Below, piece by piece: positions 1 through 63,943 of a stretch of 64,000 nucleotides of DNA. Position numbers and translations under genes: made by a program. Each line of letters begins with the position of its first letter. Positions within the stretch are counted from its first letter, which is position 1. The notes below the pieces were generated by a model. It was not told where the DNA came from. It saw only the letters and a program-made list of their open reading frames with translations, and ran no database searches. The DNA lies in the sequence record OQ067375.1. The stretch is one strand, 5' to 3'. Source of the DNA: Escherichia phage a48.

Positions 1-777
1 CAAATACTCTATGCCACCGGGTTTAATATAGTTCCATGTCTGAAACGGATGCGTCTGATATGGATGATATGGATTATAAGGATTAAATCCAGGAGTTCTC
101 CAGGTAGTGTTCCAAGGAAAAGAATCGTTTTTAATCATCTTTTTTATAGCTTTTTTACTATCAAAACTTTCTTTATTTTCCTTCGGTGAAAAAAGCTTAT
201 TTTCTACATCATTCCATGTATAAACTCGCTGAGCAGTTTTTGGAATATTGTCACGCTCTCCTCGAGCCATCCAATAAACAGGAACATTTAATATTTCACT
301 CGCATGATCGCAATGGTGAGCGAGATCGTCAATATAACAAATCACGTTATATTTCTCTTTTGCCTTTTTAAACAACTCTTCTTTTGAAGAATCATGACCA
401 CACATCAGTACTTCTGAGAAGGCACCAGGAAAAAGAGCGTTCAAATTAAATTGACGATTCAGCAGAGCGTCAATAGAATCACCCAATGCTGTAACAGCTA
501 CAAAATTATAATCTTCTTTTAATTTGTTAATTACACACAGAGCATCTTTATATGGAGACAAGTAACGAATAAAATCTGAACGATTGTATTTTTCAATTAG
601 CTTGACGCCAAGTTCTTCGTCACAATTAAAGAGTTTACCTGGAGAAATAAATTTCTCATCCTGGATCATTTTTAAAATATGTTCTAACGGAAGATTATAT
701 TTCTGAGCAAAATAAGGAAGACCTGATTGCCAGCTTAAACATACTCCATCAATATCAGTTAAAATAGTAGGCTTCAT
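1..777 (-). CDS. HAD-like hydrolase family protein (T4 gene 30.2 position); 3' end cut by window edge
   Basis: Unlisted minus ORF; ATG at 777..775 overlaps stop of next ORF (ATGA); N-terminus MKPTILTDIDGVCLSW carries DxDG motif; stays open to coordinate 1. Confidence 0.55.
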   Translation of the reverse strand, partial: MKPTILTDIDGVCLSWQSGLPYFAQKYNLPLEHILKMIQDEKFISPGKLFNCDEELGVKLIEKYNRSDFIRYLSPYKDALCVINKLKEDYNFVAVTALGDSIDALLNRQFNLNALFPGAFSEVLMCGHDSSKEELFKKAKEKYNVICYIDDLAHHCDHASEILNVPVYWMARGERDNIPKTAQRVYTWNDVENKLFSPKENKESFDSKKAIKKMIKNDSFPWNTTWRTPGFNPYNPYHPYQTHPFQTWNYIKPGGIEYL

Positions 778-1238
778 AGAGAGTCTCTTAATAGGTTTAA
801 CACATCAATAAATTCAGCTTCGGTTAGTATTGTATCATCTTTTGTTAGACCACTAGCCATGCTGTGCTTCAAAACTTTTCCTTTCGAGGCTTGTAATGCA
901 TCACGAAAGCCCTTGTTTTGAATCGCTGCTTCAAAATATGCATTTGTGTATAATTCTTTCCACGCCGGGGAGTATCTTGAAAATGGAACTCCAAGCCAGA
1001 AGAGGGTCCCACGGTCCTGAGCTCTAGCATAAGACCTTCCAGCTTGTTGAGCGGCAAGCCCGGATAACCCAAATATACGACGTTGTTGTTCAACGTTTTT
1101 CACCTTGCATCCTTGGAGGAATCCTTCAAGACCTCCAAATTGAATACCATCCATAACGAAAGGCCAATGGGCGAAATTACTTAATGCACATGATGGCCAC
1201 CTAAAATTACTTCTAATCTCTAACTCAGACATTTTCAA
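774..1238 (-). CDS. hypothetical protein (T4 30.3 position)
   Basis: 154-aa ORF in track; translationally coupled to flanking minus-strand ORFs. Confidence 0.5.
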   Translation of the reverse strand: MKMSELEIRSNFRWPSCALSNFAHWPFVMDGIQFGGLEGFLQGCKVKNVEQQRRIFGLSGLAAQQAGRSYARAQDRGTLFWLGVPFSRYSPAWKELYTNAYFEAAIQNKGFRDALQASKGKVLKHSMASGLTKDDTILTEAEFIDVLNLLRDSL

Positions 1239-1926: not shown

Positions 1927-1944
1927 TAAGGGGCCGAAGCCCCT
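1927..1944 (-). promoter_or_regulatory. GC-rich tetraloop hairpin (GGGGC-cgaa-GCCCC) in intercistronic spacer
   Basis: Perfect 5-bp GC stem with 4-nt loop between two minus ORFs; no U-run on minus strand, so likely RNA-stability or processing element rather than terminator. Confidence 0.3.
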
Positions 1945-1953
1945 CATTTTATT

Positions 1954-2386: not shown

Positions 2387-2719
2387 TTATTTTACTACTT
2401 TCCAATGCTGCATGTCAAGTTTACCAACTTTTTTCATCTTCTCAATTAAGCGTTCGGCACGTTGGCGAGCTGTAACATAATGCCATTCGCCTAATTCATT
2501 TTGTTCAATTTTTCCAACGATTACTGTATTCAATTCATAAATCCAACCAGTAAAGAAATTATGAACTTGAATTGTAAAGGTGAAATCTGTTCCCATACCT
2601 TCTGTTGTTTCTACTTCAATAATATCACCTTCAACTGCCATTAAGAACCACATAGTTTCATTATATTTACCGTTGAAGCATTTAGTTTTAACTGCAGCGT
2701 TCAGATTAATCGTTTTCAT
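2387..2719 (-). CDS. hypothetical protein
   Basis: 110-aa ORF; early-type promoter 28 bp upstream. Confidence 0.45.
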   Translation of the reverse strand: MKTINLNAAVKTKCFNGKYNETMWFLMAVEGDIIEVETTEGMGTDFTFTIQVHNFFTGWIYELNTVIVGKIEQNELGEWHYVTARQRAERLIEKMKKVGKLDMQHWKVVK

Positions 2720-2795: not shown

Positions 2796-2823
2796 AAAAT
2801 AAAAAGGACTCCCGAAGGAGTCC
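2796..2823 (-). terminator. rho-independent terminator (GGACTCC-ttcg-GGAGTCC + U-run)
   Basis: 7-bp GC stem with tetraloop followed on minus strand by TTTTTATTTT; immediately after stop of 2829..3005 ORF; identical hairpin after soc. Confidence 0.6.
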
Positions 2824-2828
2824 TCAAC

Positions 2829-6948: not shown

Positions 6949-8356
<1,408 letters not shown>

Positions 8357-9791: not shown

Positions 9792-11379
<1,588 letters not shown>

Positions 11380-11406: not shown

Positions 11407-12585
11407 TTAAAAATATTTTTTAAAACTCATCATAACTTTATCATCAACATCATTATCAATCTGTGCTACAAGATAAGATGACAGTTCTACTTCTTGTGGC
11501 GCGGATTGAACATTATCAGAATTAAGATATTCACGAATCCAAGGATATGGATGTTTAACCGGAGCATCGGTAATTGGGCATGGAAGACCACACTGTTTCA
11601 TACGAGATACAGTTAAGTAATCAATAAAGCTCCACATGCTATTTGTATTTAATCCAGGAACATCACCATCTTTAAATAAATGAACTGCCCAATCTTTTTC
11701 TTGACGGTTAACTTCCATGAAAATATCAACTGCTTCTTGTTCACACTCTTGAGCAATTTTAACCCATTCATCGCCATCAGTACCGGATTGAAGCTGACGA
11801 ATAATATATTGGGTGCCTTTAAGGTGAAGCTGCTCATCACGTGCAATGAACTTCATAATCTTAGCATTACCTTCCATGATTTCCATATTCTTATGGAAGT
11901 TAAAGGTACATGCAAAAGATACATAAAAACGAATAGCTTCCAAGGCATTAATAACGTGCAAACAGAGGTAAAGAGATTTCATTAAAGCACGTTTAGCTTC
12001 GGCTTCTTGTTTAATAGCTCGGTTTAAACGAAAGTCGGCATCAGGAGATTCTTTAGCTAGTTCTACAAATTCTTTAGCATTTTCCCATTCACGGGTTTTA
12101 ATCAGAACATCATCATAATAGCGACCGATAGATTCAGCGCGTTTCATAATAGCTTCATCTAATACAATCTCATCAAATACCTTCGATGGATCAGTATAAA
12201 GATTTCGCATGATATGTGTATATGAACGACTGTGAATAGTTTCACTAAAAGTCCATGTAGCAACCCATGTATCAAGGCTCGGGTCTGAAATTAATGACAT
12301 AAGTACAGCAGAAGGCGCACGACCCTGAATGCTATCCAAAAGTGATTGATACTTCAGGTTATTAGTAAAAATATTTTGCTGATACTGAGGAAGCTTATTA
12401 AACTGTGCAGCATCCATCATTAAGTTTACTTCTTCAGGACGCCAAAAAAATGATAAAGATTTCTCAATAAGTTCTTCAAATACTCTATGTCGTTGAATAT
12501 CATATCGAGCTAAACCCAATCCAGAACCAAAAAACATCGGCTCAGTCAAAATATTAACAGGGGATGTATTAAAAACTGTACTCAT
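11407..12585 (-). CDS. nrdB: ribonucleotide reductase small subunit
   Basis: 392-aa uninterrupted ORF with diiron/tyrosyl-radical R2 features; adjacent to nrdA. Confidence 0.95.
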   Translation of the reverse strand: MSTVFNTSPVNILTEPMFFGSGLGLARYDIQRHRVFEELIEKSLSFFWRPEEVNLMMDAAQFNKLPQYQQNIFTNNLKYQSLLDSIQGRAPSAVLMSLISDPSLDTWVATWTFSETIHSRSYTHIMRNLYTDPSKVFDEIVLDEAIMKRAESIGRYYDDVLIKTREWENAKEFVELAKESPDADFRLNRAIKQEAEAKRALMKSLYLCLHVINALEAIRFYVSFACTFNFHKNMEIMEGNAKIMKFIARDEQLHLKGTQYIIRQLQSGTDGDEWVKIAQECEQEAVDIFMEVNRQEKDWAVHLFKDGDVPGLNTNSMWSFIDYLTVSRMKQCGLPCPITDAPVKHPYPWIREYLNSDNVQSAPQEVELSSYLVAQIDNDVDDKVMMSFKKYF

Positions 12586-13223
12586 TTAGAATCCTTAAAT
12601 TTACATTTATCATAATGCCATCTTAAAGCATTGCCTTTATTAACTTTCTTGCCACAATGCGGACAAGGCGGATACTCTGTACCTTGCTTAGTTCTCAAAG
12701 AAATCAAATCACGGGTTTCTTTAGTATGAGGAACATCTCTTGTCGGAGAGATTGTACCATACATCGGATTAAGCACGCCGACTTTAGCAGCAGCTATATT
12801 CTTTTTAGCTTCTTCGGTTTTAGGTTTTCTCATGCGAGCTAAATGCTCTTTGGTAAATTTCCTTCCTTTAAGGGCTCTACTTATCTTTTCTCTGGTTTCC
12901 ATAGAAACTTCACGTCCTATAGCAGCTTCAGATAAACGTCGTCTACCTAATTCATACAGTTGAGAAGAAATTTTATATGAGCGATTTTTACCAGTCAAGC
13001 ACATTAAACCAAAAGCTTTCTTTAATCCTGGGGTGTCATATATTTTACATAAAAGCCAATGAGCTATAAAATGCTCTCTACCTGTTAATTCAACTAAATT
13101 TTCTTTATCATCAGAACCTCCCATGCATTTAGGGACTATATGATGTGTCTCTTTATATTCGGATAAAGGTTCCCGAGCCTGAGCTCGGGAAATTAGGTCA
13201 TTATAGATTTTTTGATAATTCAT
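12582..13223 (-). CDS. mobE: HNH homing endonuclease (MobE-like), free-standing between nrdA and nrdB
   Basis: 213-aa ORF with HNH motif HHIVPKCMGG...ENLVELTGREHFIAHW and C-terminal CxxC zinc finger; same intergenic location as T4 mobE. Confidence 0.75.
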   Translation of the reverse strand: MNYQKIYNDLISRAQAREPLSEYKETHHIVPKCMGGSDDKENLVELTGREHFIAHWLLCKIYDTPGLKKAFGLMCLTGKNRSYKISSQLYELGRRRLSEAAIGREVSMETREKISRALKGRKFTKEHLARMRKPKTEEAKKNIAAAKVGVLNPMYGTISPTRDVPHTKETRDLISLRTKQGTEYPPCPHCGKKVNKGNALRWHYDKCKFKDSK

Positions 13224-15487
13224 TACAATTTACACGCTGCGCAATCATCGGCTTTTGGAGTTTCTATTTCATAATCATCAGTACCAGAACCATCGCGGGT
13301 ATTATGATAATAGAAATTTTTAATGCCATAATACCATCCGTATAGCATGTCATCAATCATTATTGACATTGGAACCTTACCTTTAGGGAAGATTTGGGGG
13401 TCATAATATGTATTCGCTGAAGCTGATTGACATACCCATTTCAACATAATAGCTACCTGTGTAAGATAAGGTTTATTACCTTTCTTAGCTAATTTCCATG
13501 TATAATCATAGAGGTCTATGTTATGTTCAATATTGGGCACGACTTGATTAAAGGAACCCTCTTTTGATTCTTTAACAGAGACTGGTCCACGTGGAGGCTC
13601 GATACCGTTTGTACTGTTAGAAACTTGGGAAGATGACTCACATGGCATAAGTGCTGATAGTGTGCTATTACGGATGCCAAAGAGCTTAAGGTCTTCCCGC
13701 AGCGACGACCAGTCACAAACGTATTTTGGAGCTGCGATTTGGTCAATCTTTTTATTGTACCAGTCGATAGGTAATTCGCCTCGAGACCAACGAGTGTCTG
13801 AATAATATTCGCAAGGTCCTTTTTCTTTGGCGAGCTTAATGGATGCTTTAATGAGTCCATACTGTAATCTCTCAAATAGTTCATGTGTTAAATCGTTAGC
13901 ATCTTCATAAGAAGCAAAGTTACTTGCCAACCAAGCTGCATAGTTAGTAACACCTACACCGAGGTTACGACGCTTTTTAGCTTTTTCTGCTTCAGGAACT
14001 GGATATCCTTGGTAATCCAAAAGATTATCAAGAGCACGAACCTGGACTTCTGCCAATTCATTAATTTTATCTTGGTCTTGCCAGTCAAAATTATCTAGTA
14101 CGAATGCAGAGAGAGTACACAATCCAATTTCAGCATCAGGACTATTCACATCATTTGTTGGAATAGCAATTTCACAGCACAAGTTACTCTGACGAATAGG
14201 TGCCTTTTCACGAATAAACGGAGTATAGTTATTCGTATTATCAATGAACTGTACATAAATTCTTGCTGTTCCTGAGCGTTCAGTCATGAGCAATTCAAAT
14301 AGTTCACGGGCTTTAATACGCTTTTTACGAATATTAGGGTCTTTTTCTGCTGCTTCGTATAATTCACGGAAACGGTCTTGGTCTTTAAAATAAGAATAAT
14401 AAAGCTCTCCACCCATTTCATGGGGACTGAACAAAGTAATGTAATCGTTCTTTCCAAAACGTTCCATCATCAAATCATTCAGTTGAACGCCATAATCCAT
14501 ATGACGAATGCGGTTTTCTTCTACGCCTTTGTTATTTTTCAAAACGAGAAGATTTTCAACTTCCAAATGCCAAATAGGATAATAAGCAGTAGCAGCGCCG
14601 CCACGAATTCCACCCTGTGAACATGATTTAACTGCAGTCTGAAAATGTTTCCAAAAAGGAATAACACCAGTATGACGTACTTCACCCATGCCAATCTTAG
14701 AACCTTCGGCACGAATCATGCCAACATTAATACCAATTCCAGCGCGTTTAGAGATATATTCAACAATTGAAGCGGAAGCCTTATTGATAGACTTCAGCGA
14801 ATCACCTGCCTCAATAACAACGCATGAACTGAACTGTCGAGTCGGAGTACGACAACCAGCCATAATAGGAGTTGGCAATGAAATCTGTCGAGTAGATACT
14901 GCTTCATAAAAACGAATAACATGTTTTAATCTATCAACAGGTTCATCTTGATGCAATGCCATTCCAATAGTCATAAATGCAAACTGTGGAGTTTCATAAA
15001 TTTGACCAGTGGTTTTATCTTTAACTAAATATTTTTCTTTTAATTGCATCGCCCCGGAATAAGTAAATTCCATATCCCGTTCGTGCTTAATTTTTGATTC
15101 TAAAAATGTAATTTCTTCTGCTGAATATTTTGACAACAATTCAGGGTCATATTTACCTTCATTTACACAGTAAGAAATATGGTCAATAAATGAACGTGGT
15201 TCATACTGCCCATAAACATGCTTACGAAGAGCGAACATTAAACAGCGTGCAGCTACATATTGATAATCAGGCTCTTCAACCGAAATAGAATTCGCAGCAG
15301 CCTTAATGACAATAGTCTGAATGTCATCAGTTGTCATTCCATCACGGAGATATGATTTAATATTTTCATATAATTCATAAGGATCTACTGATGTTCCCTC
15401 AGATGCCCAAGATAAAACTTTAATAATTTTTTGCGGGTCAAAGCTCTGAGAAACACCACTACTTTTGATAACATTAATTAATTGCAT
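13223..15487 (-). CDS. nrdA: ribonucleotide reductase large subunit
   Basis: 754-aa ORF, class I RNR alpha with C-terminal redox cysteines (CAACKL). Confidence 0.95.
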   Translation of the reverse strand: MQLINVIKSSGVSQSFDPQKIIKVLSWASEGTSVDPYELYENIKSYLRDGMTTDDIQTIVIKAAANSISVEEPDYQYVAARCLMFALRKHVYGQYEPRSFIDHISYCVNEGKYDPELLSKYSAEEITFLESKIKHERDMEFTYSGAMQLKEKYLVKDKTTGQIYETPQFAFMTIGMALHQDEPVDRLKHVIRFYEAVSTRQISLPTPIMAGCRTPTRQFSSCVVIEAGDSLKSINKASASIVEYISKRAGIGINVGMIRAEGSKIGMGEVRHTGVIPFWKHFQTAVKSCSQGGIRGGAATAYYPIWHLEVENLLVLKNNKGVEENRIRHMDYGVQLNDLMMERFGKNDYITLFSPHEMGGELYYSYFKDQDRFRELYEAAEKDPNIRKKRIKARELFELLMTERSGTARIYVQFIDNTNNYTPFIREKAPIRQSNLCCEIAIPTNDVNSPDAEIGLCTLSAFVLDNFDWQDQDKINELAEVQVRALDNLLDYQGYPVPEAEKAKKRRNLGVGVTNYAAWLASNFASYEDANDLTHELFERLQYGLIKASIKLAKEKGPCEYYSDTRWSRGELPIDWYNKKIDQIAAPKYVCDWSSLREDLKLFGIRNSTLSALMPCESSSQVSNSTNGIEPPRGPVSVKESKEGSFNQVVPNIEHNIDLYDYTWKLAKKGNKPYLTQVAIMLKWVCQSASANTYYDPQIFPKGKVPMSIMIDDMLYGWYYGIKNFYYHNTRDGSGTDDYEIETPKADDCAACKL

Positions 15488-15804
15488 AAGTCCTCAACTT
15501 GAAAATCGTCTTTAAACAGTCGGTTAACTATATGAGCTATTATATCACCATGACACGGCTTTGGTTTACATGTGCATCCTAGCCTCATTCCACGTAAAGG
15601 CTCTAAATGTGCTTTAGTTATTTCTCCGGATTTAATTCGACGTATAAAATCTTTTTTGAATAATTCAATGGCAGCCTCCCGGCTGCCAGCATCTTTACCG
15701 ACGTAATTTCCCCAAAATGTACCACGGTGAATATTAACATCAAAGTCGGATTTATATTTATTCACTACCTGGCATAGACGGCCCGCGCGGTGATAATTCG
15801 TCAT
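15478..15804 (-). CDS. hypothetical Cys-containing protein (nrdA.1 position)
   Basis: 108-aa ORF between td and nrdA. Confidence 0.45.
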
Positions 15805-16021
15805 ATTGTTTTTCCGTTAAAACAGTAATATCATAGTAACAATCAGAAGAAGTTTTAACTGTAGAAATTTTATTATCAAAATACTCACGAGTCATTTTAT
15901 GAGTATAATATTTTTTGCCATAAATGATAATAGGCTGATTTGGTCCTGGAACTTCTAACTCACTTGGGTTAGGAAGTGTAAAAAGAACTACACCAGAAGT
16001 ATCTTTAAATCGTAAAATCAT
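15758..16021 (-). CDS. hypothetical protein (nrdA.2 position)
   Basis: 87-aa ORF. Confidence 0.45.
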
Positions 16022-16044
16022 AAATCCTCACAATTAAATTAAAA

Positions 16045-16356
16045 TTACACCGCCATTTTTCCTTTCAAGACGCCGTGGGACTGATAATCTTTGAGAACGA
16101 AATCTTTAGGCCTGAGTTTAAGAATGTATTCCAATTGTTCTTTAGTAGAAAGATAGCGGAATTTATAAGGCAATCCGCCTATTACCAGTTCACAAAGCTC
16201 TTTAGGTTCACGACGCAAAATTTCTTTACATTGTTCTACGTGATTCATATAGATATGAGTATTACCACCGGAAAATATCAAATCTCCCGGAATAAGATTA
16301 CACATCTTAGCTACAATATGAACTAACGTAGCATATGATGCAATATTAAATGGAAG
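16045..16356 (-). CDS. td: thymidylate synthase, exon 2
   Basis: Encodes LPFNIASYATLVHIVAKMC...; joins in frame to exon 1 giving VFLG|LPFN; total 286 aa. Confidence 0.9.
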   Translation of the reverse strand, partial: LPFNIASYATLVHIVAKMCNLIPGDLIFSGGNTHIYMNHVEQCKEILRREPKELCELVIGGLPYKFRYLSTKEQLEYILKLRPKDFVLKDYQSHGVLKGKMAV

Positions 16357-17372
16357 CACTATGTTCAGATAAGGTCGTTAATCTTACCCCGGAATTATAT
16401 CCAGCTGCATGTCATCATGCAGATCAGACTATATCTCCAACTTGTTAAAGCAAGTTGTCTATCGTTTCGAGTCACTTGACCCTACTCCCCAAAGGGATAG
16501 TCGTTAGGCATTTATGTAGAACCAATTCCATTTATCAGATTTTACACGATAAGTAACTAATCCAGACGAAATTTTAAAATGTCTAGCTGCATCTGCTGCA
16601 CAATCAAAAATAACCCCATCACATGAAATCTTTTTAATATTACTAGGCTTTTTACCTTTCATCTTTTCTGATATTTTAGATTTAGTTATGTCTGAATGCT
16701 TATGATTAAAGAATGAATTATTTTCACCTGAACGATTTCTGCATTTACTACAAGTATAAGCAGAAGTTTGTATGCGAACACCGCACTTACAAAACTTATG
16801 GGTTTCTGGATTCCAACGCCCGTTTTTACTTCCGGGTTTACTGTAAAGAGCTTTCCGACCATCAGGTCCAAGTTTAAGCATCTTAGCTTTAACAGTTTCA
16901 GAACGTTTCTTAATAATTTCTTCTTTTAATGGATGCGTAGAACATGTATCACCAAACGTTGCATCAGCAATATTGTATCCATTAATTTTAGAATTAAGCT
17001 CTTTAATCCAAAAATTTTCTCGTTCAATAATCAAATCTTTCTCATATGGAATTTCTTCCAAAATAGAACATTCAAACACATTACCATGTTTGTTAAAAGA
17101 CCTCTGAAGCTTTATAGAAGAATGGCATCCTTTTTCTAAATCTTTAAAATGCCTCTTCCATCTCTTTTCAAAATCTTTAGCACTTCCTACATATACTTTA
17201 TTGTTTAAAGTATTTTTAATCTGATAAATTCCGCTTTTCATAAATACCTCTTTAAATATAGAAGTATTTATTAAAGGGCAGTCCTACAATTTAGCACGGG
17301 ATTGTCTACTAGAGAGGTTCCCCGTTTAGATAGATTACAAGTATAAGTCACCTTATACTCAGGCCTCAATTA
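16357..17372 (-). mobile_element. group I self-splicing intron (td intron) carrying I-TevI
   Basis: 1016 nt; 5' end on minus strand reads TAATTGAGGCCTGAGTATAAGGTGACTTATACTTGTAATC..., matching the recalled T4 td intron; exon 1 ends in U and intron ends in G. Confidence 0.9.
16504..17241 (-). CDS. I-TevI: I-TevI GIY-YIG homing endonuclease
   Basis: 245-aa ORF MKSGIYQIKNTLNNKVYVGSAKDFEKRWKRH... with GIY-YIG motif, inside td intron. Confidence 0.9.
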   Translation of the reverse strand: MKSGIYQIKNTLNNKVYVGSAKDFEKRWKRHFKDLEKGCHSSIKLQRSFNKHGNVFECSILEEIPYEKDLIIERENFWIKELNSKINGYNIADATFGDTCSTHPLKEEIIKKRSETVKAKMLKLGPDGRKALYSKPGSKNGRWNPETHKFCKCGVRIQTSAYTCSKCRNRSGENNSFFNHKHSDITKSKISEKMKGKKPSNIKKISCDGVIFDCAADAARHFKISSGLVTYRVKSDKWNWFYINA

Positions 17373-17921
17373 ACCCAAGAAAACATCTACTGATCGTTGA
17401 TACCACTGCAAATCCAAATAGCCATTACGCACATTAAACTGATAGAACATATGACAAGGCGGTAATGCCATCTGCTTGAGTTCAGCTGGATTCCATGCTG
17501 AAACAATTTGACGCCTATCATTTGGCAATTTTTTAATACGATCAATAACTTCTATAATTTGGTCTACACCACCAAAATCACGCCACTGTTTTCCATAAAT
17601 TGGACCAAGTTCACCGCTATGGTATCCTAAATCTTTTGCTTGATTTTCGTAATTTTCATCCCAAACTGTTTTGCCTTGGATTAACGAATCATGTTGAATT
17701 AATCGCAAATCATTGACATTTGTGCTTCCCGATAAAAACCAAAGCAGCTCAGCAATGCAAGCTTTCCAGGCGAGCTTCTTAGTTGTTACTGCAGGAAAAC
17801 CTTTAGTTAAATCCCAGCGTAATTTAGTACCGAACAAAGCAATTGTTCCTGTGCCTGTTCGGTCATCGGTTTCGTAGCCATTTTCCAGGATATCTTTAAT
17901 TAAAAATTGGTATTGTTTCAT
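17373..17921 (-). CDS. td: thymidylate synthase, exon 1
   Basis: 183 codons MKQYQFLIKDILENGYETDDRTGTGT... ending ...QRSVDVFLG; track ORF reads 3 nt into intron to a TAA. Confidence 0.9.
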
Positions 17922-17966
17922 TTAGTACCTTATATAAATTATAATACATTTTATGAAGCTAAATAA

Positions 17967-29671: not shown

Positions 29672-32617
29672 ATGGCTACTTTAAAACAAATACAATTTAA
29701 AAGAAGCAAAACTGCAGGTCAACGTCCTGCTGCTTCAGTATTAGCCGAAGGTGAATTGGCTATAAACTTAAAAGATAAAACAATTTTCACAAAAGATGAC
29801 TCAGGTAGTGTTATAGAATTAGGTTTAAAATATGGAGGAACTATAAATGGGTCTTTAGAGGTTACAGAAAATATAACTGGAACTTTAATTGGAAATTCTA
29901 GCACAGCTACTAAATTGCAAACACCTAGGAAAATTAATGGTATATCTTTTGATGGGTCAAAGGACATTACCTTAACTCCATCTGACATAAATGTCAATAG
30001 CAAAACATTTATAAAAAATAATGGCGAATTACCTACTGATGCTAATTTAGATACGTATGGGCCCATTGAAGAATATCTTGGTGTTTGGTCGAAATCTACT
30101 TCAACAAATGCGCAACCAGCAAATAAATTCCCAGAAGAAAATGCCGTAGGTGTACTAGAAGTGTTTGTGGCCGGCCAATTTGCTGGCACTCAGCGTTATA
30201 CTGTAAGATCTGGTAACGTCTATATTCGTTCCTTATCTGCTAAATGGAATGGCGTCGATGGTCCATGGGGTGTGTGGCGTAATGTTCAAGCGTCAACTCG
30301 TCCACTTTCACGAACGATTGACCTTGATAGCTTGGGAGAATTAGAACATTGTGGCTTATGGCGAAACAGTTCAAGCGCAATCGCATCATTTGATCGCCAT
30401 TATCCAGAAGAAGGATCAGCCGCACAAGGATTTTTAGAAATATTTGAAGGTGGTTTATACACGAGAACTCAGCGTTATACTACCCGCATGGGTATGGTTT
30501 ATACTCGTTGTCTCGCTGCTGCATGGGATGCTAGTGCACCTAAGTGGGAGGAATGGAAGCAGGTTGGTCATGGCACACCAGCGACTTTCTATGATGGAGA
30601 TCTGAATGATTTTAAAACTCCCGGGTTATATAATATTTTAGGCACTGATGCCGTTATTAACTGTCCTACAGGTGAAGGTTTGCCGACTGTTATTGTTGGT
30701 TTGCTGGAAGTTAAACAGCGTGCTTCTGGCGGTGCTATTTTCCAACGTTTCACTACCGCAGGAACGGGTGCAACTACTCGCGATCGTATTTTTGAGCGTG
30801 CATATACTGGTGGTGCGTGGGGTGCATGGAACGAAGTATATACATCTTATTCTCTGCCAATTACTTTGGGTATGGGTGGTATTAAAGCTCAATTAGCGGA
30901 GTTAGATTGGCAAACCTTTGATTTTGTCCCTGGTAGTATGTTTAGTGTTCCTTTGAACAAAATAAAGAATATGCCAGCAAATATGGATTGGGGCACGATT
31001 GATGGAAACCTGGTTATGTTTTCCGTTGGTCCTAGCGAACACACTGGCACAGGACGTACTGTTCAGGTTTGGCGCGGTACTGTATCCCAGACAAACTACC
31101 GTTATTTCGTTGTTCGTATCGCTGGTAATCCAGGAAGTAGGACTAATACTTGTCGCCGTGTTGTTCTTGAAGACGGATCACATACTTGGACTGCTCAACA
31201 AAACTTTAGGGGATTGCTGAATATCACTGCTGCTGTTAATCTTGGTGCTAATCAGAAAATTTCACTTGCTCCAGGAGCATATATTCAAGCCCCTGCTAGC
31301 GGTTCTGGTTCTAATACTTACGCAAATCAGAATATTACCATTGCGCCATTATATCAGGCTATTGACGATTCAAATAAAAACCAGTTTGCGCCAATTGTTA
31401 AACAGAAAAATACTGTAAGTAATATCACCTTTGCCACTGGTATGGCTATAGGTACATCCGAATATAAGATCATTGCTCAGGGTGATTTATCCGCTGATGG
31501 AACAGCAGATGGGTTAAAACAGTGGACTTTCATGCCGTCAGGTTATTTTAAATCTCCAGGGCGTGTATATGTCGGTGATGCGTTCCTTAATACAGATGGT
31601 AATATTGCCGGTTCAATCTGGAATAAATATAACAATGCGACAAATTTAGATGCTGCCTTGAATACTCGCGTAGGTAAAGGCGGTGATACGATGACAGGTC
31701 GGTTAACAATCAATGCACCTAATGATTCTATTGTATTATCAACGACTGCTAGTAATTCTTTGCATATTCGTGGTGACATAGACGGGACTGGTAACTGGTA
31801 TATTGGTAAGGGTGGTGCTGATAATTCGCTAGCATTTTATAGCTATGCTTCTCAGGCGGCAGTACATATCACAAACAATGGTGAGATTGCGTTAAACCCG
31901 CAAAATACCGCAATGGTTAACGTTAACCGTGACCGTGTACACATTAACGGTTCTGGATGGATTGCTAGACAACCGGGTGATTGGGTCAACCAATGGCGAG
32001 TAGAAGCTCCATTATTCGTTGATCATGGTTATGTTTCACAGGATTGTTATTATCCTATTCTTAAAGCAAGAAGCGTTATAACCAATCAAGGATATAGCAC
32101 CGCTGTTGACTTTGGTATGCGTCGTATTCCATCACAGTGGGGGCAAGCAATCATTCGTGTCGGATCCACGGAGGCTTCTCCTGATGCTGGACACCCACAA
32201 GCTGTGTTTGAATTCCATCATGATGGATTCTTTTATACACCAGGAAATGGTAGCTTTAGCGATGTGTATATTCGTTCTGACTCCCGTCTCAAGATTAATA
32301 AAGAAGAATTAGAATATGGAGCGGTCGAAAAAGTTTGCCGACTGAAAGTTTATATTTACGATAAAGTTAAGTCTATTAAAGACCGTAGTGTTATTAAACG
32401 TGAAGTTGGTATTATTGCTCAGGACCTTGAAAAGGAATTACCGGAAGCTGTATCTAAAGTTGAAGTTGATGGATCTGATGTTCTGACAATTTCTAACTCT
32501 GCTGTGAATGCTCTTTTAATTAAGGCTATTCAGGAAATGAGTGAAGAAATTAAAGAATTGAAAACGCCTCTCTTTACTAAAATTGCTCGCAAAATTAGTA
32601 AATATTTTAAATTCTAA
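29672..32617 (+). CDS. 37: gp37 long tail fibre distal subunit with C-terminal intramolecular-chaperone-like domain
   Basis: 981-aa ORF; N-terminus conserved with gp34/gp36 type fibres; C-terminal ~110 aa contains SDSRLK motif and coiled-coil tail. Confidence 0.9.
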
Positions 32618-32653
32618 CAACAAGGGGGAAATGCCCCCTTTGGAGTATAAATT

Positions 32654-33436
32654 ATGGCAGTAGTTGGTGTTCCTGGTTGGATTGGAAGTTCAGCCGCAAA
32701 TGAAACAGGACAGCGCTGGATGAGTCAAGCGGCTAGTCAATTAAGATTGGGTGTTCCTTGCTGGATGAGTCAATTTGCAGGTCGCTCACGAGAAATTATT
32801 CACACGCTTGGAGCAGACCATAACTTCAATGGTCAATGGTTCCGAGATAGATGTTTTGAGGCAGGTAGTGCACCTATAGTGTTTAATATTACAGGTGATT
32901 TAGTATCATATTCTAAAGATGTTCCTTTATTCTTCATGTACGGAGATACACCAAATGAATATGTTCAGTTAAATATACATGGCGTAACGATGTATGGACG
33001 TGGCGGTAATGGTGGTAGCAATAGTCCTGGCTCAGCTGGAGGTCATTGTATTCAAAACGATATTGGTGGGAGACTAAGAATTAATAATGGTGGAGCTATT
33101 GCTGGCGGCGGTGGCGGCGGTGGCGGCGGATATTATTCTCCTTTTTCACAAATGAGATTAACCTTTGGCGGTGGTGGTGGGCGTCCGTTTGGTGCACCTG
33201 GCGGATCTATTGATATGCAATCAGGCGCAACTGCTGGTACTATTTCTGCACCTGGCTCAGGATCCGTGAATGGTATCTATAATGGTGGAAACGGTGGTGA
33301 AGTAGGTTCCGCGGGAGGTAGATGCAATATTCGCGGTCAAGGATCTGAATATAATGGCGGCGCTGCTGGTTATGCTGTCATAGGGTCTGCTCCAACGTGG
33401 CAAAATGTTGGAGCAATATATGGTCCAAGAGTATAA
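32654..33436 (+). CDS. 38: gp38 receptor-recognising adhesin (T2-type, glycine-rich motifs)
   Basis: 260-aa ORF with poly-Gly blocks ([38 protein letters not shown]) separating variable segments. Confidence 0.85.
33104..33130 (+). repeat. (GGC/GGT)9 simple-sequence tract encoding Gly9 in gp38
   Basis: ggcggcggtggcggcggtggcggcgga read directly. Confidence 0.8.
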
Positions 33437-33466
33437 TGTGAATAAATACCCTTAAAAGGAGGGTCT

Positions 33467-34557: not shown

Positions 34558-34836
34558 TCATTCGAAATAATCTTCAATTTCGTAATCATGGACATAAATC
34601 ATTATAGTTTTTAATATATCATCAATACTTTTTCCTGGAGCTGGAATTACGTAAAAATATCCTGCTTTTGAGAGGTCTTTATAAGTTCCAATCAAGAAAT
34701 CGTTATTCTCAAGATGTAGTTCTTCAACTAATTCATTGACAATTGAATGGTATAAATTTGGTAGAAACTTATATAGCTTTTCTAGAATATCAATTTTGAT
34801 TGTATATTGAACCACAGATTGAGAATCAATAATCAT
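34558..34836 (-). CDS. arn: Arn anti-restriction (McrBC inhibitor) protein
   Basis: 92-aa acidic ORF MIIDSQSVVQYTIKIDILEKLYKFL... at T4 arn position. Confidence 0.8.
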   Translation of the reverse strand: MIIDSQSVVQYTIKIDILEKLYKFLPNLYHSIVNELVEELHLENNDFLIGTYKDLSKAGYFYVIPAPGKSIDDILKTIMIYVHDYEIEDYFE

Positions 34837-37132: not shown

Positions 37133-37282
37133 TTACTGCATGACTGTGATAACTGTCATGATAACACGTTGAATTCCGAACGCAAGAAGACCTCCTGCTA
37201 CGGCTGGAACAACGCCTAAACCCGTCAGTAAAATGCTACCAGATACTAATGCAGCGCTTGTAATACCAATGAATGGACTCAT
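37133..37282 (-). CDS. small hydrophobic membrane peptide (49 aa)
   Basis: Unlisted ORF MSPFIGITSAALVSGSILLTGLGVVPAVAGGLLAFGIQRVIMTVITVMQ; ATGA overlap with gene 52 stop. Confidence 0.4.
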   Translation of the reverse strand: MSPFIGITSAALVSGSILLTGLGVVPAVAGGLLAFGIQRVIMTVITVMQ

Positions 37283-38607
37283 TTGATTTCCTCTAAATCT
37301 TTGGTGTATTCGGTAACTACATCAGTAGTTTTCCAATATTCGTTTTCTTCTTTTTTAGCTTTAGCTTCTTCAGCAAGTTTCTTTGCTTCGTCGGAAGTCA
37401 TATGAAAAATATTCATTCCGACTAGTTTATCAACATAAGAAGAATACATATCAATTTTAGAAAGTTCTTCGGTCAGTTCTTTGCGAGTTTTACCCTGCAC
37501 AACAATTTCACCTGAAATTACTTTCTTAATGAAATGTGCCTTGGCAAAGGCTAAACGAAATGCTGATTCAGTTTCTTTGATTTTGTTATCAATTCGTTTT
37601 TGGACATAAGTTTTACGAACTTCAACAAAGTCTTTAATTAAATCAACTACGTTATCGTAAACTTGCAGCTTTCCTTTCTCATTAATGACTGTAATATTCT
37701 GAGAACGACGCTCAATCAGTCCGAAGTCTTTCATAATTTTTGCATGGCGTTCTTCTTCATTATCGCTCAAAGAGTATTCTTTTCGGAATTTAACTTTGAA
37801 TCCAAAACCATGCTCACCACAAGCATCATCCCATGTAATGAAGCCTTTATCTTCAAGTGGGTCTAAGATTTTACTCACATAAGTTTCACGATCATACTTA
37901 TACGGAATCTCAGTGATATGCATTTGAGTTCGTGAAGTAAACTTATATGTTCCACGAATTTCATATTGCCCATCAATTTCAACGACTTCACCACGAAATT
38001 CTGGGAATTCTACCTTCGGTTTAGTTACTTTCTTTCCTTGAAGAGCTTGCAGTACAGCTTTCTTAACAGAAGAAACACTATGAGGAAGAATGTAAGTTGC
38101 ATAACCAGTTGCAATACCGGAAACGCCATTAAGAAGAACAGTAGGAATAACAGGCAAATAGAAAGCAGGCGGAATGTGTTCTTTATCTTGATGTACCGGA
38201 GCATATTCAGTATCTTTATATACGTTATAGAAATTTTTACTTACACGAGCAAAAATATAACGACTTGCTGCTGCCTTTTGGACAGTACGAGAACCAAAGT
38301 TTCCTTGACCGTCTAACAGAGGAAAGTTATTATTCCAAGTGTTAGCCATCAAAGCACCTGCGTCTTGCGCAGAGTTTTCACCATGATGATATCCAAGGTC
38401 CGCTACACCACCTGCGATAGAAGCGAGCTTATGAAACTTATCTTTATTTCCTCGTGCCAAATCAAGAGCTCGAGCAATAACAAATCGTTGAACTGGCTTA
38501 AATCCGTCAATCATATTTGGAATGGCACGATTTTCAACCGTGTACATAGCATAAGCCAATGCTTCATTATCAATGATACTTTTTAAATCACGATTATTCA
38601 GTTGCAT
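37279..38607 (-). CDS. 52: gp52 DNA topoisomerase II medium subunit
   Basis: 442-aa ORF MQLNNRDLKSIIDNEALAYAMYTVENRAIPNMIDGFKPVQRFV... GyrA-like breakage-reunion domain. Confidence 0.9.
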   Translation of the reverse strand: MQLNNRDLKSIIDNEALAYAMYTVENRAIPNMIDGFKPVQRFVIARALDLARGNKDKFHKLASIAGGVADLGYHHGENSAQDAGALMANTWNNNFPLLDGQGNFGSRTVQKAAASRYIFARVSKNFYNVYKDTEYAPVHQDKEHIPPAFYLPVIPTVLLNGVSGIATGYATYILPHSVSSVKKAVLQALQGKKVTKPKVEFPEFRGEVVEIDGQYEIRGTYKFTSRTQMHITEIPYKYDRETYVSKILDPLEDKGFITWDDACGEHGFGFKVKFRKEYSLSDNEEERHAKIMKDFGLIERRSQNITVINEKGKLQVYDNVVDLIKDFVEVRKTYVQKRIDNKIKETESAFRLAFAKAHFIKKVISGEIVVQGKTRKELTEELSKIDMYSSYVDKLVGMNIFHMTSDEAKKLAEEAKAKKEENEYWKTTDVVTEYTKDLEEIK

Positions 38608-38611
38608 AAAT

Positions 38612-38752
38612 TTACCATACTAGTGAATGTAGTGCCATAATAACATCAGAAATGAAAAGCACGACTTGAATTAATCCGAACATTATTCCGTAATATAATG
38701 CTATCAATAAAATAGCAAGGGCTAATGAATAGCCCAAGATTTTCTTAATCAT
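38612..38752 (-). CDS. small hydrophobic membrane peptide (46 aa)
   Basis: Unlisted ORF MIKKILGYSLALAILLIALYYGIMFGLIQVVLFISDVIMALHSLVW; stop 5 nt before gene 52 ATG. Confidence 0.4.
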   Translation of the reverse strand: MIKKILGYSLALAILLIALYYGIMFGLIQVVLFISDVIMALHSLVW

Positions 38753-38903
38753 TAGTAGATAACAACACAAATGTTAAATATGCACACATACCCTGAGCTA
38801 AAGCTTGCGAAAACACACTGCTGGCATCAATCAGGATAGTTAAAACACATGCTACTATCCAACAAATAAATGAAATAACTCCTAATAATTTTGCGATATT
38901 CAT
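38745..38903 (-). CDS. small hydrophobic membrane peptide (52 aa), Ac-like
   Basis: Unlisted ORF MNIAKLLGVISFICWIVACVLTILIDASSVFSQALAQGMCAYLTFVLLSTND; size and position (between stp and 52) fit recalled T4 ac. Confidence 0.45.
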   Translation of the reverse strand: MNIAKLLGVISFICWIVACVLTILIDASSVFSQALAQGMCAYLTFVLLSTND

Positions 38904-38910
38904 ATTTTCC

Positions 38911-38991
38911 TCACTGGCGTCCGAAGACGCCTTTAGTTTTAAGATTATTACGATAGAACTGCATCACATGTTCGTTATGGAAATTACTCAT
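38911..38991 (-). CDS. stp: Stp 26-residue peptide
   Basis: Unlisted [29 protein letters not shown]; ATG overlaps ndd stop (TAATG); length and position as recalled for T4 Stp. Confidence 0.7.
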
Positions 38992-39449
38992 TAATATGCC
39001 TGCAAAACAAATTTAAAGTTATCAGCCAACATACGGTTCATTTCTTCAAGTGTTTGATACTCAGAATGATGATTACGAGTAAACGCTAAAGCTAACTGTC
39101 CTTTTCCAAATCCCGTCGTCAGAGGTTTCATCTTAGAAGCAGGCAGATAAAATACTGTGTATACCATATTGTTATTTGCAATAGTACGTGCAAGCTGAGA
39201 CCGACGTTGACGAATATGACTTAGAACTGCACTGAATCCTTGCTTAGAACGCTGATTACCTACATAAAATCGTGCAGACACACATGGATTACTAAATGGA
39301 CGACCATCTAATTTACTTACTAAAAAATAAAATCCAGGTTTAGATAAAATATCTTTATGCGGAGTTCCCAAAAACCACTCACCACCCTTGATTGTACCAA
39401 TAACAGTAGCGCCTGCATTATTCAGATCAGTAACAGTCATGTATTTCAT
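38991..39449 (-). CDS. ndd: Ndd nucleoid-disruption protein
   Basis: Trimmed to [33 protein letters not shown]... (152 aa) with SD AGAGGAAA. Confidence 0.8.
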
Positions 39450-39507
39450 ATTAATTTCCTCTAAATTATTTTCTACTCCAAGGCCACATGAATACGCGGC
39501 CATTAAA

Positions 39508-40744: not shown

Positions 40745-41302
40745 TTAAATGGAAAGATACCATCCGTTGTAGTTGCTTTTTCTTACAACCTTACGAAGGT
40801 CTTCTCTATCACCGATGAACTTCGGAGTGTACTGGATGACACCTGGGTGAATTTCTTTAGTGTTGAATATAATTATACAGTCAGCGACCTGATGATTCAG
40901 AATGGGCCCTAGATTTATTCCAGAACCGTATGGATACTCTCCGCTGCATCCTGTTGTTACAGAAATCCAACGCGAGTCAGTTTGATGTGTCTTAACTTCT
41001 ACACGAAGCCCGCAGTATCTTGGATGCGCCAATACATCCCATGCGTATGTATACGGGTCATTAACATCCTCTTGGCCTTTGTTAACATACCCGTTTAGCC
41101 AATCTGCTACAAAAAACTCTGCGTACACCGCGATACGACATCTTTCAATAACTTCTGCTTTATCCTGGTTCGGGTTTTGTTTTAAAGAGTATCTTGCTGT
41201 ATCAGCAATTTTGACCTTCATTTCACTAGTCAAGTCACTGTTCGATAGGGTAAATGTCGGAATCTGAAATAGTCTCTGTAACCCCGGATTCGTTTTCTGC
41301 AT
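40745..41302 (-). CDS. denB: endonuclease IV
   Basis: 185-aa ORF at T4 denB position downstream of rIIB; size matches recalled DenB; true start may be internal (see findings). Confidence 0.75.
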   Translation of the reverse strand: MQKTNPGLQRLFQIPTFTLSNSDLTSEMKVKIADTARYSLKQNPNQDKAEVIERCRIAVYAEFFVADWLNGYVNKGQEDVNDPYTYAWDVLAHPRYCGLRVEVKTHQTDSRWISVTTGCSGEYPYGSGINLGPILNHQVADCIIIFNTKEIHPGVIQYTPKFIGDREDLRKVVRKSNYNGWYLSI

Positions 41303-41564
41303 TTAAACTTTCCTTTTTACCACTAAGATAAGCGTTATACACTTTAAGAGTACCATAGTAAATTCGATCATTTTCATCTAAAGAATTACGATCAAGTTCA
41401 TCGAGATTCTTTTTGCCCATGACTATAACATCATTGCAGTAAAGAACTCCAAGTTTTTCATGCCCAAACTCGAATTTATTGCAGTACACAATATTAGCGT
41501 AATGATTACCATGTAGAGAAATTTCTTTTATGTCGGTGTCACCGATATTCATACAATAAATCAT
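41235..41564 (-). CDS. hypothetical protein
   Basis: 109-aa ORF; 3' end overlaps the 5' end of the denB ORF by 68 nt. Confidence 0.4.
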   Translation of the reverse strand: MIYCMNIGDTDIKEISLHGNHYANIVYCNKFEFGHEKLGVLYCNDVIVMGKKNLDELDRNSLDENDRIYYGTLKVYNAYLSGKKESLNAENESGVTETISDSDIYPIEQ

Positions 41565-41573
41565 AATTTACCT

Positions 41574-41595
41574 TAAAACAAAAGGGCCGAAGCCC
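41574..41595 (-). terminator. GC tetraloop hairpin with U-run (putative terminator)
   Basis: GGGCTTCGGCCC hairpin followed on minus strand by TTTTGTTTT. Confidence 0.45.
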
Positions 41596-41599
41596 TTAT

Positions 41600-41794: not shown

Positions 41795-41822
41795 AATTTT
41801 CCTTAGTTAAGGGCCGAAGCCC

Positions 41823-42761
41823 TTATTTAAATTGTTCAGTAACGTCTTCAACTACTTCGTATTGGCAGGTACGCATTTTAGCATCGTTGTAATCAATCGG
41901 AATTGATACTACATCACGCGGATGTACTTTAACTTTTACAACTCGGCTGGTTGAACTGCCAAAGTGACGAATATAAGATTTAGAACATACATGCAGACCA
42001 CGAGAACAAGTTTGTGTATCATCGTCATTCACACGAGTACGTGGCATTTTAACTACTTTACCCGGACTGTTATCAAAGGTGTTTGAGTGACAGTCAAAGT
42101 AGTTGTCACGAACTACTTTCCAAGCATAGAAGTAACCATCTTCGGTGATTTCAATATCGTTTGCTACCAAGAAATCAAAGAGTCGAGATACTGCTTTTTG
42201 GCTTGGGTTTTCCAGCAGATTTTCCAAGAACGGAAAATAAAATTCAAAGTTTTCGCCTTTTTCCATCGAGTCAAGAATACGATCAACCAAACCAGACCGC
42301 AATTCAATATTTTGATAGAACAAGCTTCCACCTTCAATTCGAACATCGCCGGAAATATATTTTTCAACAGCACGGCGAACATTAATTTTTTGTGCAGCTT
42401 CTTCCAGCTTATCCGCTACAAGCAGATTAAGAATTTCCTGGAAGTTTGAATGAGTATTAGGAGTTGCGTTATAAGTTACACCATCGACAGTAATCGAAAT
42501 GAATTTTTTAGATGCATTCCAAATAATGTCAGATTTAGCAACTGGAGCAATAACTGCATCGCTATTAACTTTAACTGTAATATCACCACTAATAGTAACT
42601 TTAGGGCGTTTAGCTTCTTCAGCATTTTTCAAAACACGACGGATTGTGTCAACCGATACACCTTGCCAATCAGCCAATTCCTGTTGAGTGTAATTACCAC
42701 TTGAATACAGTTTAACAATTTCAGCTTGTTCGTTTTTGGTCAGGCATTTAATATTGTACAT
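41823..42761 (-). CDS. rIIB: rIIB rapid-lysis/Rex-exclusion protein
   Basis: 312-aa ORF MYNIKCLTKNEQAEIVKLYSSGNYTQQELADWQGVSVDTIRRVLKN... Confidence 0.95.
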   Translation of the reverse strand: MYNIKCLTKNEQAEIVKLYSSGNYTQQELADWQGVSVDTIRRVLKNAEEAKRPKVTISGDITVKVNSDAVIAPVAKSDIIWNASKKFISITVDGVTYNATPNTHSNFQEILNLLVADKLEEAAQKINVRRAVEKYISGDVRIEGGSLFYQNIELRSGLVDRILDSMEKGENFEFYFPFLENLLENPSQKAVSRLFDFLVANDIEITEDGYFYAWKVVRDNYFDCHSNTFDNSPGKVVKMPRTRVNDDDTQTCSRGLHVCSKSYIRHFGSSTSRVVKVKVHPRDVVSIPIDYNDAKMRTCQYEVVEDVTEQFK

Positions 42762-47039: not shown

Positions 47040-47105
47040 TTATCCTCGTTTGGTTTCGGGAATATTATACTCCGGTAATCATAAAGCTAAAGGCCCGAAG
47101 GCCTT

Positions 47106-47366
47106 TTATTTAAAACGGATAGTCGAATCCTTAAAGAACAGCCCAGAACACACGGTTCCTTCTACTTTCTGCCCGGTAGGTCCAATAGCACGAAATCCAG
47201 TATGTTGGAAATCATTTTCAGAGCAACCGAACCAGTTATATCCAGTGATTTCAATATTAGTAAAACCACTTGAAGACAAAACTTTGGTTGCATTATCAGC
47301 ATCAGTACATCCTACTAAAGACACTACTAATACTAATGCTGCGATAGAACGATTAATATATTTCAT
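47106..47366 (-). CDS. putative lipoprotein
   Basis: Signal peptide MKYINRSIAALVLVVSLVGC with lipobox LVGC. Confidence 0.5.
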   Translation of the reverse strand: MKYINRSIAALVLVVSLVGCTDADNATKVLSSSGFTNIEITGYNWFGCSENDFQHTGFRAIGPTGQKVEGTVCSGLFFKDSTIRFK

Positions 47367-57710: not shown

Positions 57711-57735
57711 GAAAAAAGGACTCCCGAAGGAGTCC
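57711..57735 (-). terminator. rho-independent terminator downstream of soc
   Basis: GGACTCC-ttcg-GGAGTCC hairpin followed on minus strand by TTTTTTCATTT; same stem-loop sequence as at 2806..2823. Confidence 0.6.
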
Positions 57736-57741
57736 TTGAAT

Positions 57742-63604: not shown

Positions 63605-63943
63605 TTAAAAGAATTTAAACTTTTTCTTTGACCTTTTATTAAATGCATCTTGTAGTTGCATTGTAATACATTTTTCTACATGAGGAGCTAACTCAGCTTT
63701 TCTTTCTTGGTCAAGAACAGCAAAGTCCATTACGACTTTTCCATCAACCCAATCTAATTTTGTCACATACACAATGTGTGTAGAACCATCTTCTAGTTTA
63801 ATGACAATCTCCTGGATAACATTTTCCATAGCGGATTTAATTATCTTAAGAGACTCATTAAAAAGACGTTCTTTTCTTTCTTCTTCCCCCTCCGAAGAGG
63901 GGGATTCATCGATAATTTCTAAATCTAAATCATCTTTACTCAT
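63605..63943 (-). CDS. 40: gp40-like protein
   Basis: Track ORF trimmed to ATG 63943..63941 (MSKDDLDLEIIDES...), which sits inside the last codons of uvsX; position between uvsX and 41. Confidence 0.6.
   Translation of the reverse strand: MSKDDLDLEIIDESPSSEGEEERKERLFNESLKIIKSAMENVIQEIVIKLEDGSTHIVYVTKLDWVDGKVVMDFAVLDQERKAELAPHVEKCITMQLQDAFNKRSKKKFKFF

Follow-up and report, generated by a model that had tools for sequence, protein, structure and literature searches.

The interval between ndd and gene 52 of Escherichia phage a48 (sequence record OQ067375.1), taken as a whole, is almost certainly occupied by three genes already known from T4, namely stp, ac and 52.1, encoding peptides of 26, 52 and 46 amino acids. 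The interval was studied within a stretch of 64,000 nucleotides of this phage, referred to below as the window. A preliminary description of the window, made from its sequence, had proposed three small open reading frames (ORFs) of these lengths between ndd and gene 52, and they were recovered on the minus strand at exactly the positions it gave. As the three genes were already known, the result is a correct re-identification and no discovery. The same description had placed a UUCG-tetraloop hairpin inside the stp coding sequence, where it is indeed present. The elements discussed are located as follows:

38911..38991 (stop included), minus strand: stp, 26 amino acids
38745..38903, minus strand: ac, 52 amino acids
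38612..38752, minus strand: 52.1, 46 amino acids counted from the ATG
38916..38931, minus strand: C(UUCG)G hairpin GGCGUC-UUCG-GACGCC within stp, 6-bp stem, -10.0 kcal/mol, z = -4.3

The assignment of the 26-residue product to Stp is borne out by complete identity with the T4 protein (NP_049878): mismatches between the two were looked for and none was found over all 26 residues, including positions 4-14, where loss-of-function mutations are concentrated (PMC3014915). The peptide scores 75.3 bits on the Pfam family PF08133 (anticodon nuclease activator, Nuclease_act), for which the cut-off is 25, and covers model positions 1-26 of 26; it also matches the PHROG family phrog_6763 with E = 4e-21. 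It is hydrophilic, with a grand average of hydropathicity (GRAVY) of -1.03, and its gene is placed between ndd and ac, as in T4-like genomes. T4 stp (T4p267, UniProt P62765) shares the 26 residues, the overlap with the ndd stop codon, the hairpin and the downstream Shine-Dalgarno sequence, and differs by two nucleotides, both synonymous.

The 52-residue product, previously matched to Ac by size and position, proved to be T4 Ac with one substitution and one extra residue in the same slot. When aligned with NP_049877, 50 of 51 residues are identical, the differences being C24L and an additional Thr50, which brings the length to 52 amino acids instead of 51. The peptide matches phrog_2501 with E = 4.3e-24 over residues 1-51, whereas Pfam has no model for Ac. 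T4 ac (T4p266, UniProt P18924) has the same slot, the same 8-nt overlap with 52.1 and the same hydrophobic two-helix layout, but encodes 51 amino acids; Thr50, absent there, is present in most of the sampled relatives. The 46-residue product is identified by sequence as T4 gp52.1, a predicted two-helix membrane peptide. It is identical to NP_049876 at 43 of 46 positions, the remaining three being the conservative changes A14I, V17I and V23I, and it scores 78.3 bits on the Pfam family PF24129 (DUF7396; cut-off 27) across model positions 1-46 of 46. The family phrog_3595 is also among the PHROG matches obtained for the three small genes. T4 gene 52.1 (T4p265, UniProt P18922) agrees in length (46 amino acids) and position, and differs from the A14I/V17I/V23I allele found here, which is common to phages U115 and OE5505. 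The hydrophobic character claimed for the two larger products was confirmed: Ac has a GRAVY of +1.44 with 65% hydrophobic and three charged residues, its hydrophobic stretches covering residues 4-25 and 38-49, and gp52.1 reaches +1.80 with 70% hydrophobic and likewise three charged residues.

The genomic setting agrees with these assignments. A query with the 501-nt region matched 564 phage records, almost all of them T4-like phages of Escherichia, Shigella and Yersinia, and its best nucleotide match, at 99.6%, was vB_EcoM_OE5505 (Tequatrovirus). Megablast aligned the window colinearly with positions 126000-168903 of T4 at 90-98% identity, the exceptions being known variable spots, and on nucleotide similarity the window is assigned to the genome of a T4-like (Tequatrovirus) phage. 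In the T4 reference NC_000866 the order is gene 52, 52.1 (46 amino acids), ac (51 amino acids), stp (26 amino acids) and ndd.

Since small ORFs are common here, with 41 of at least 20 amino acids in these 3 kb, ORFs alone prove nothing. The three frames might accordingly be chance openings in spacer DNA that lies between ndd and gene 52 and does not code for protein, an explanation which would draw on the abundance of frames of 20-50 codons in this AT-rich DNA, on the fact that stp and 52.1 were not called by gene finders according to the notes in the RB32 record, and on the lack of any recorded proteomic detection of the three genes in T4. Its probability is nevertheless close to nil, as it is already refuted by comparative data. 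All three products match curated families far above the cut-offs, the stp frame, with an ATG and 25-27 codons, is found again in no fewer than six unrelated groups of phages, and published genetics and biochemistry exist for the identical T4 peptide. Furthermore, the ratios of the proportions of nonsynonymous (pN) and synonymous (pS) differences, obtained with Nei-Gojobori counts against relatives, lie between 0.07 and 0.15:

stp compared with siphovirus (Kagunavirus) K1ind2: pN 0.056, pS 0.818, ratio 0.07
52.1 compared with Gaprivervirus VR7: pN 0.080, pS 0.547, ratio 0.15
ac compared with T4: pN 0.019, pS 0.181, ratio 0.10

The three genes are thus under purifying selection. Homology, these ratios and the surplus of C(UUCG)G hairpins described below exceed chance. 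What the present analysis demonstrates is the identity of the sequences, the membership in families, synteny, purifying selection and the presence of the hairpin.

Nothing was found that speaks against the identification of the interval; a few observations limit what can be attached to it. In time-resolved T4 omics data, stp, ac and 52.1 carry the entry 'NA' where ndd and the neighbouring genes carry a protein class (PMC9697503, supplement file 4); the entry suggests that these products escaped proteomic detection, as is expected of very short or very hydrophobic ones. A literature search for a T4 ribosome-profiling data set found none. Residue 24 of Ac is leucine here and cysteine in every sampled relative. 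The leucine is due to two indels, +1 and -1, at 38832-38834 (coding-strand TGT -> CTG), a pair that none of the sampled relatives has, and the insertion and the deletion, two bases apart, are the only differences from OE5505 (99.6%) in 501 nt; Leu24 is either the outcome of a compensated frameshift or a sequencing artefact. Moreover, a 2025 review describes the inhibitory mechanism of Stp as unknown (PMC12707154), and the role given below to the stp hairpin is read from its position and its class only.

The tight spacing of the three genes, one of the initial claims, was recovered at every junction with the neighbouring features:

38991..39449, minus strand: ndd (nucleoid disruption protein), upstream neighbour, PF06591 with E = 2.5e-94, 96.7% identical to T4 Ndd
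37279..38607, minus strand: gene 52 (topoisomerase II medium subunit), downstream neighbour, 442 amino acids, PF00521 with E = 1e-76, nearly identical to T4 gp52
38909..38912, minus strand: Shine-Dalgarno sequence GAGG of ac, overlapping the stp stop codon UGA (38911..38913), with the ac AUG 5 nt further on

One base is common to the stop codon of ndd and the start codon of stp (TAATG, position 38991), and the stp stop UGA overlaps the ac Shine-Dalgarno sequence (UGAGG, 38909..38913), leaving 7 nt from the stop to the ac AUG. The ac and 52.1 frames overlap by 8 nt (AUGAUUAA), and 4 nt separate the end of 52.1 from the AUG of gene 52. The ndd ORF can be read as 152 or 170 amino acids (38991..39449 or 38991..39503, minus strand), and 52.1 appears in the ORF listing as a 52-residue form starting from an upstream TTG. 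These junctions suggest that translation may be coupled through the stp/ac/52.1 arrangement. The three genes would be read leftward on an early or delayed-early polycistronic mRNA, with stop and start signals overlapping or nearly touching; in T4 their transcripts fall in the early class (PMC9697503, supplement file 4), and Stp, polynucleotide kinase (Pnk) as well as RNA ligase 1 (Rnl1) have been reported as delayed-early products (PMC3014915). Variants of the upstream junction were also noted. Phages of the Gaprivervirus type have a different sequence upstream of stp, with no fusion to the ndd stop, in ECP52 an extra T fuses ndd to stp, and in UPEC07 an in-frame extended Stp of 52 amino acids has been annotated at 623..781 of its locus.

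The biochemical activities attributed to Stp are taken over from published work on the T4 peptide, which has the identical sequence. T4 Stp blocks type IC restriction (EcoprrI, EcoR124I) and switches on the latent anticodon nuclease PrrC; it relieves restriction by EcoprrI and EcoR124I, not by type IA enzymes, and removal of the last eight stp codons lowers its activity only moderately (PMC3014915). As the relief is limited to type IC, it is the type IC enzyme that Stp targets, and not PrrC directly. The conserved part of the Stp family corresponds to its N-terminal 18 residues. In the proposed mechanism, Stp would be a 26-residue cytoplasmic peptide acting on host type IC restriction-modification enzymes and blocking DNA restriction. 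In a prr-carrying host, the disturbed EcoprrI would unmask the bound latent PrrC nuclease, which would cut tRNA-Lys in the anticodon loop, and the phage enzymes Pnk and Rnl1 would then undo the cut. Both are encoded in the window, and the phage side of this conflict is therefore complete within it:

7141..8040 (sense codons), minus strand: pseT (Pnk, polynucleotide kinase/phosphatase, which heals the tRNA-Lys ends), tblastn match to T4 Pnk residues 1-301, 92.4%
9795..10916 (sense codons), minus strand: rnlA (Rnl1, RNA ligase 1, which reseals the healed tRNA-Lys), tblastn match to T4 Rnl1 residues 1-374, 99.2%

The tRNA-repair genes are mosaic in their divergence, Pnk being 92% and the nearby Rnl1 99% identical to T4. 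For decades the reference annotation of T4 has included stp, ac and 52.1, and the interplay of Stp, PrrC, Pnk and Rnl1 is a textbook case of phage-host conflict.

A different emphasis, to which we lean without great confidence, is that for the phage stp is an anti-type IC restriction gene and that the activation of PrrC is the counter-move of the host, a view which would leave the identification unchanged. It is favoured by the inhibition of EcoR124I, an enzyme without PrrC, by the annotation of the peptide by one group as 'type IC restriction inhibitor', and by the occurrence of Stp family members in many siphoviruses. On the other hand, glucosyl-hydroxymethylcytosine in T4 DNA already resists type I enzymes, and what a T4-like phage would gain from an anti-type IC peptide is therefore not evident. 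Like Ocr, ArdA and Arn, Stp belongs to the early phage products which disable a host restriction enzyme, but it differs from them in having only 26 residues and no solved structure; Arn is itself encoded in the window (34561..34836). Searches of the PDB with the sequences of Stp and Ac gave no match at E up to 10, and an NCBIfam search returned only noise, far below the cut-offs.

Relatives of Stp were sought with tblastn against phage records and with degenerate DNA patterns. A family core of the form [FWH]HN[EG]H[VI]MQ[FWL]YR was found in siphoviruses, where it is mostly unannotated; for the siphovirus peptides of 25-30 amino acids the core is also given as HNEH[VI]MQ[FWL]YR. The siphovirus carriers include Kagunavirus (K1ind2, at 2495..2572 of its locus, minus strand), Drexlerviridae (ZL19 and XT34; Braunvirinae, Nouzillyvirus), Skatevirus (seszw) and phages of Klebsiella and Salmonella. 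All seven siphovirus Stp-like peptides tested passed the PF08133 cut-off, with 35-70 bits. The core is also present in 38 metagenome contigs, and a scan for the core pattern gave 0 matches in the representatives of 185,579 bacterial and archaeal species, so that at that stringency nothing points to copies in prophages or bacteria.

With regard to Ac, a 2025 preprint reports that an intact T4 ac gene confers sensitivity to acriflavine and its deletion resistance, that expression of ac sensitises E. coli to acriflavine, and proposes that Ac interferes with AcrAB-TolC efflux (10.1101/2025.06.30.662393). The name 'Ac acridine resistance protein' is consequently misleading, since the intact gene is associated with sensitivity to acridines and its loss with resistance. 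Ac would be a small inner-membrane protein whose presence would make infected cells accumulate acridines. The slot following stp is variable across phages, with at least four dissimilar hydrophobic alleles (beginning MNIAKLLG.., MKFVHGIAFF.., M[VI]ILVFIEL.. and MTSVFSF..). Phage vB_Eco_Geo has two of the ac-slot alleles in tandem, and in one T2 record ac is interrupted by a TAA stop at codon 11.

The stp hairpin runs from codon 21 to the first base of codon 26 (residues GVFGRQ) and ends 12 nt before the ac AUG. The fold of its 131-nt context is unremarkable (z = -0.5), and the local 16-nt hairpin alone stands out. An Rfam gathering scan over the whole window gave no match, and the hairpin thus belongs to no curated RNA family. 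It is one of a set: C(UUCG)G hairpins with stems of at least 5 bp occur eight times in the window, against 0.2 in mononucleotide shuffles, always on the minus strand, which is the early-gene strand, and never on the plus strand:

1927..1946, 2804..2825, 38916..38931, 41582..41597, 41808..41825, 47089..47106, 57716..57737 and 63885..63904, minus strand: C(UUCG)G hairpins, stems of 6-9 bp

Six of the seven others start at or just past a stop codon, i.e. at cistron boundaries. The seventh is found close to the 5' end of an ORF; since the PHROG match of this ORF starts at residue 10, the hairpin may lie upstream of its true start. In four cases, the stp hairpin included, a Shine-Dalgarno sequence and an AUG follow within 12-17 nt. 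Hairpins of the CUUCGG type are described as especially abundant in T4, mostly between genes (Tuerk et al. 1988, PNAS 85:1364, in the account given by PMC8948821). The stp hairpin resembles the C(UUCG)G hairpins of T4 mRNAs in its C-G-closed UUCG loop, its restriction to the transcribed strand, its location at the 3' end of a cistron and its distance of 12 nt from an AUG. Unlike this class, it lies wholly within sense codons, as the only one of the eight in the window to do so, and it is thus not intercistronic.

Wherever a sampled T4-like phage has the GVFGR tail, the 16 nt remain paired, and the sole changes seen are a UUUG loop (VR7), a U.G wobble (UPEC07) and a G.U wobble, the latter in 25-residue Stp variants ending in UAA; the variant hairpins range from -8.3 to -10 kcal/mol. 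In ECP52 the loop is inverted (TTCG -> CGAA) with the stem intact, which converts FG into RR (GVFGRQ -> GVRRRQ) at stp codons 23-24, and the inversion looks like a template-switch event at the palindrome. T2-type phages have another tail (NFGILGFKK) and no hairpin. In Kagunavirus-type siphoviruses GVFG is kept by the codons GGR GUG UUU GGA, with no hairpin and a folding energy of 0 kcal/mol; as GVFG is retained where the hairpin is absent, the tail residues are under protein-level selection there. On this distribution the hairpin is read as a lineage-specific overlay. The covariation check yielded a loop change, two wobbles, one loop inversion and no double compensatory changes, in total few events. 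In every sampled T4-like haplotype with the GVFGR tail, whichever ac allele follows, the hairpin forms part of a cassette of the form hairpin-NNN-UGAGGAAAA(U/C)AUG.

The hairpin is most likely an mRNA stability or processing element directly 5' of the ac ribosome-binding site. A broader and more tentative proposal, possible but not one we would rely upon, combines several points. In T4-like phages the last six stp codons would double as a C(UUCG)G mRNA hairpin of the cistron-boundary type. The hairpin and UGAGG may form a conserved cassette at the 5' edge of a hypervariable membrane-peptide slot. It may be RNA structure, and not peptide function, that fixes the codons of a largely dispensable Stp tail, and Stp itself may be a general anti-type IC peptide of myoviruses and several enterobacterial siphovirus genera. 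If this holds, the cassette would control the stability or translation of the downstream gene, or would serve as a recombination joint.

This proposal has to be set against the view, for which we would give a similarly doubtful rating, that the hairpin is a functionless by-product of the GVFGRQ codons. The use of other codons for GVFG in Kagunavirus-type phages, where no hairpin is formed, speaks for selection on the peptide tail itself, and synonymous changes are scarce, with two events in five codons. Conversely, the window has eight C(UUCG)G hairpins against 0.2 in shuffles, all of them on the transcribed strand and six of the seven others at cistron boundaries, which does not fit well with a mere by-product. 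The pairing is moreover kept while the flanks vary, upstream (ACU AAA, ACC AAA, AUU ACC or UUA ACU) as well as downstream (CAG, UAA, CUG or CCU); changes within the hairpin are limited in T4-like phages to the loop change and the U.G and G.U wobbles, and Stp without its last eight codons is only moderately less active. It is very improbable that the hairpin is instead a transcription terminator, either of the early transcript or of a plus-strand antisense RNA. On the plus strand the hairpin precedes TTTAGTTTTA and does agree with a terminator-like pattern, but this T run stems from K-T-K codons and is missing in VR7 and UPEC07, and no plus-strand gene is close by, the nearest, t, ending about 4.8 kb upstream. 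On the minus, transcribed strand the next bases are AGUGAGGAAAAUAUG and contain no U run, and ac, 52.1 and 52 come directly after the hairpin. An intrinsic (Rho-independent) terminator on the transcribed strand was rejected as a candidate, because the tail AGUGAGGAAAAU lacks the U run.

A second hairpin is present further downstream, within 52.1:

38719..38735, minus strand: hairpin GGGCUA-UUCAU-UAGCCC in 52.1 codons 6-12, followed by UUGCUAUUUU, with a terminator-like pattern on both strands

The record MK373785 lists it as an ARNOLD terminator. VR7 and UPEC07, which are Gaprivervirus phages, show two synonymous changes here, each of them in the loop, and their stem is unaltered.

The absence of the three genes from the ORF track of the window, which the preliminary description had pointed out, is real, but it follows solely from the 60-amino-acid cut-off of that track. 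Roughly a dozen further genes annotated in T4 over the matching stretch likewise fall short of 60 amino acids. Comparable losses are found in public records. In the RB32 record stp and 52.1 are marked 'not predicted by GeneMarkS or Glimmer', and in the closest relative of the window stp is omitted and 52.1 is truncated in the annotation. In a spread sample of T4-like records with stp at least 92% identical, 32 of 37 have only ndd, with its one-base overlap, annotated under stp. The practical lesson for annotation is that a 60-amino-acid cut-off, and likewise GeneMarkS and Glimmer as noted in the RB32 record, lose stp and 52.1.

Elsewhere in the window, three places were noted in the comparison with T4: 11909..11912, 13059..17924 and 29805..33442. 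A segment of about 600 bp, T4 138457-139058, is missing; it overlaps the I-TevIII ORF in the nrdB intron (T4 138593-138886). T4 and the window align without a break over the td region with its intron and I-TevI, yet the gathering scan with Rfam detected none of its families in the window. No megablast match to T4 was obtained for genes 37 and 38 of the distal tail fibre. Between denB.1 and denB lies an ORF of 109 amino acids (41238..41564, minus strand), a member of phrog_2237, function unknown; it sits in a stretch of about 200 bp that is missing from T4 and is preceded by a C(UUCG)G hairpin.

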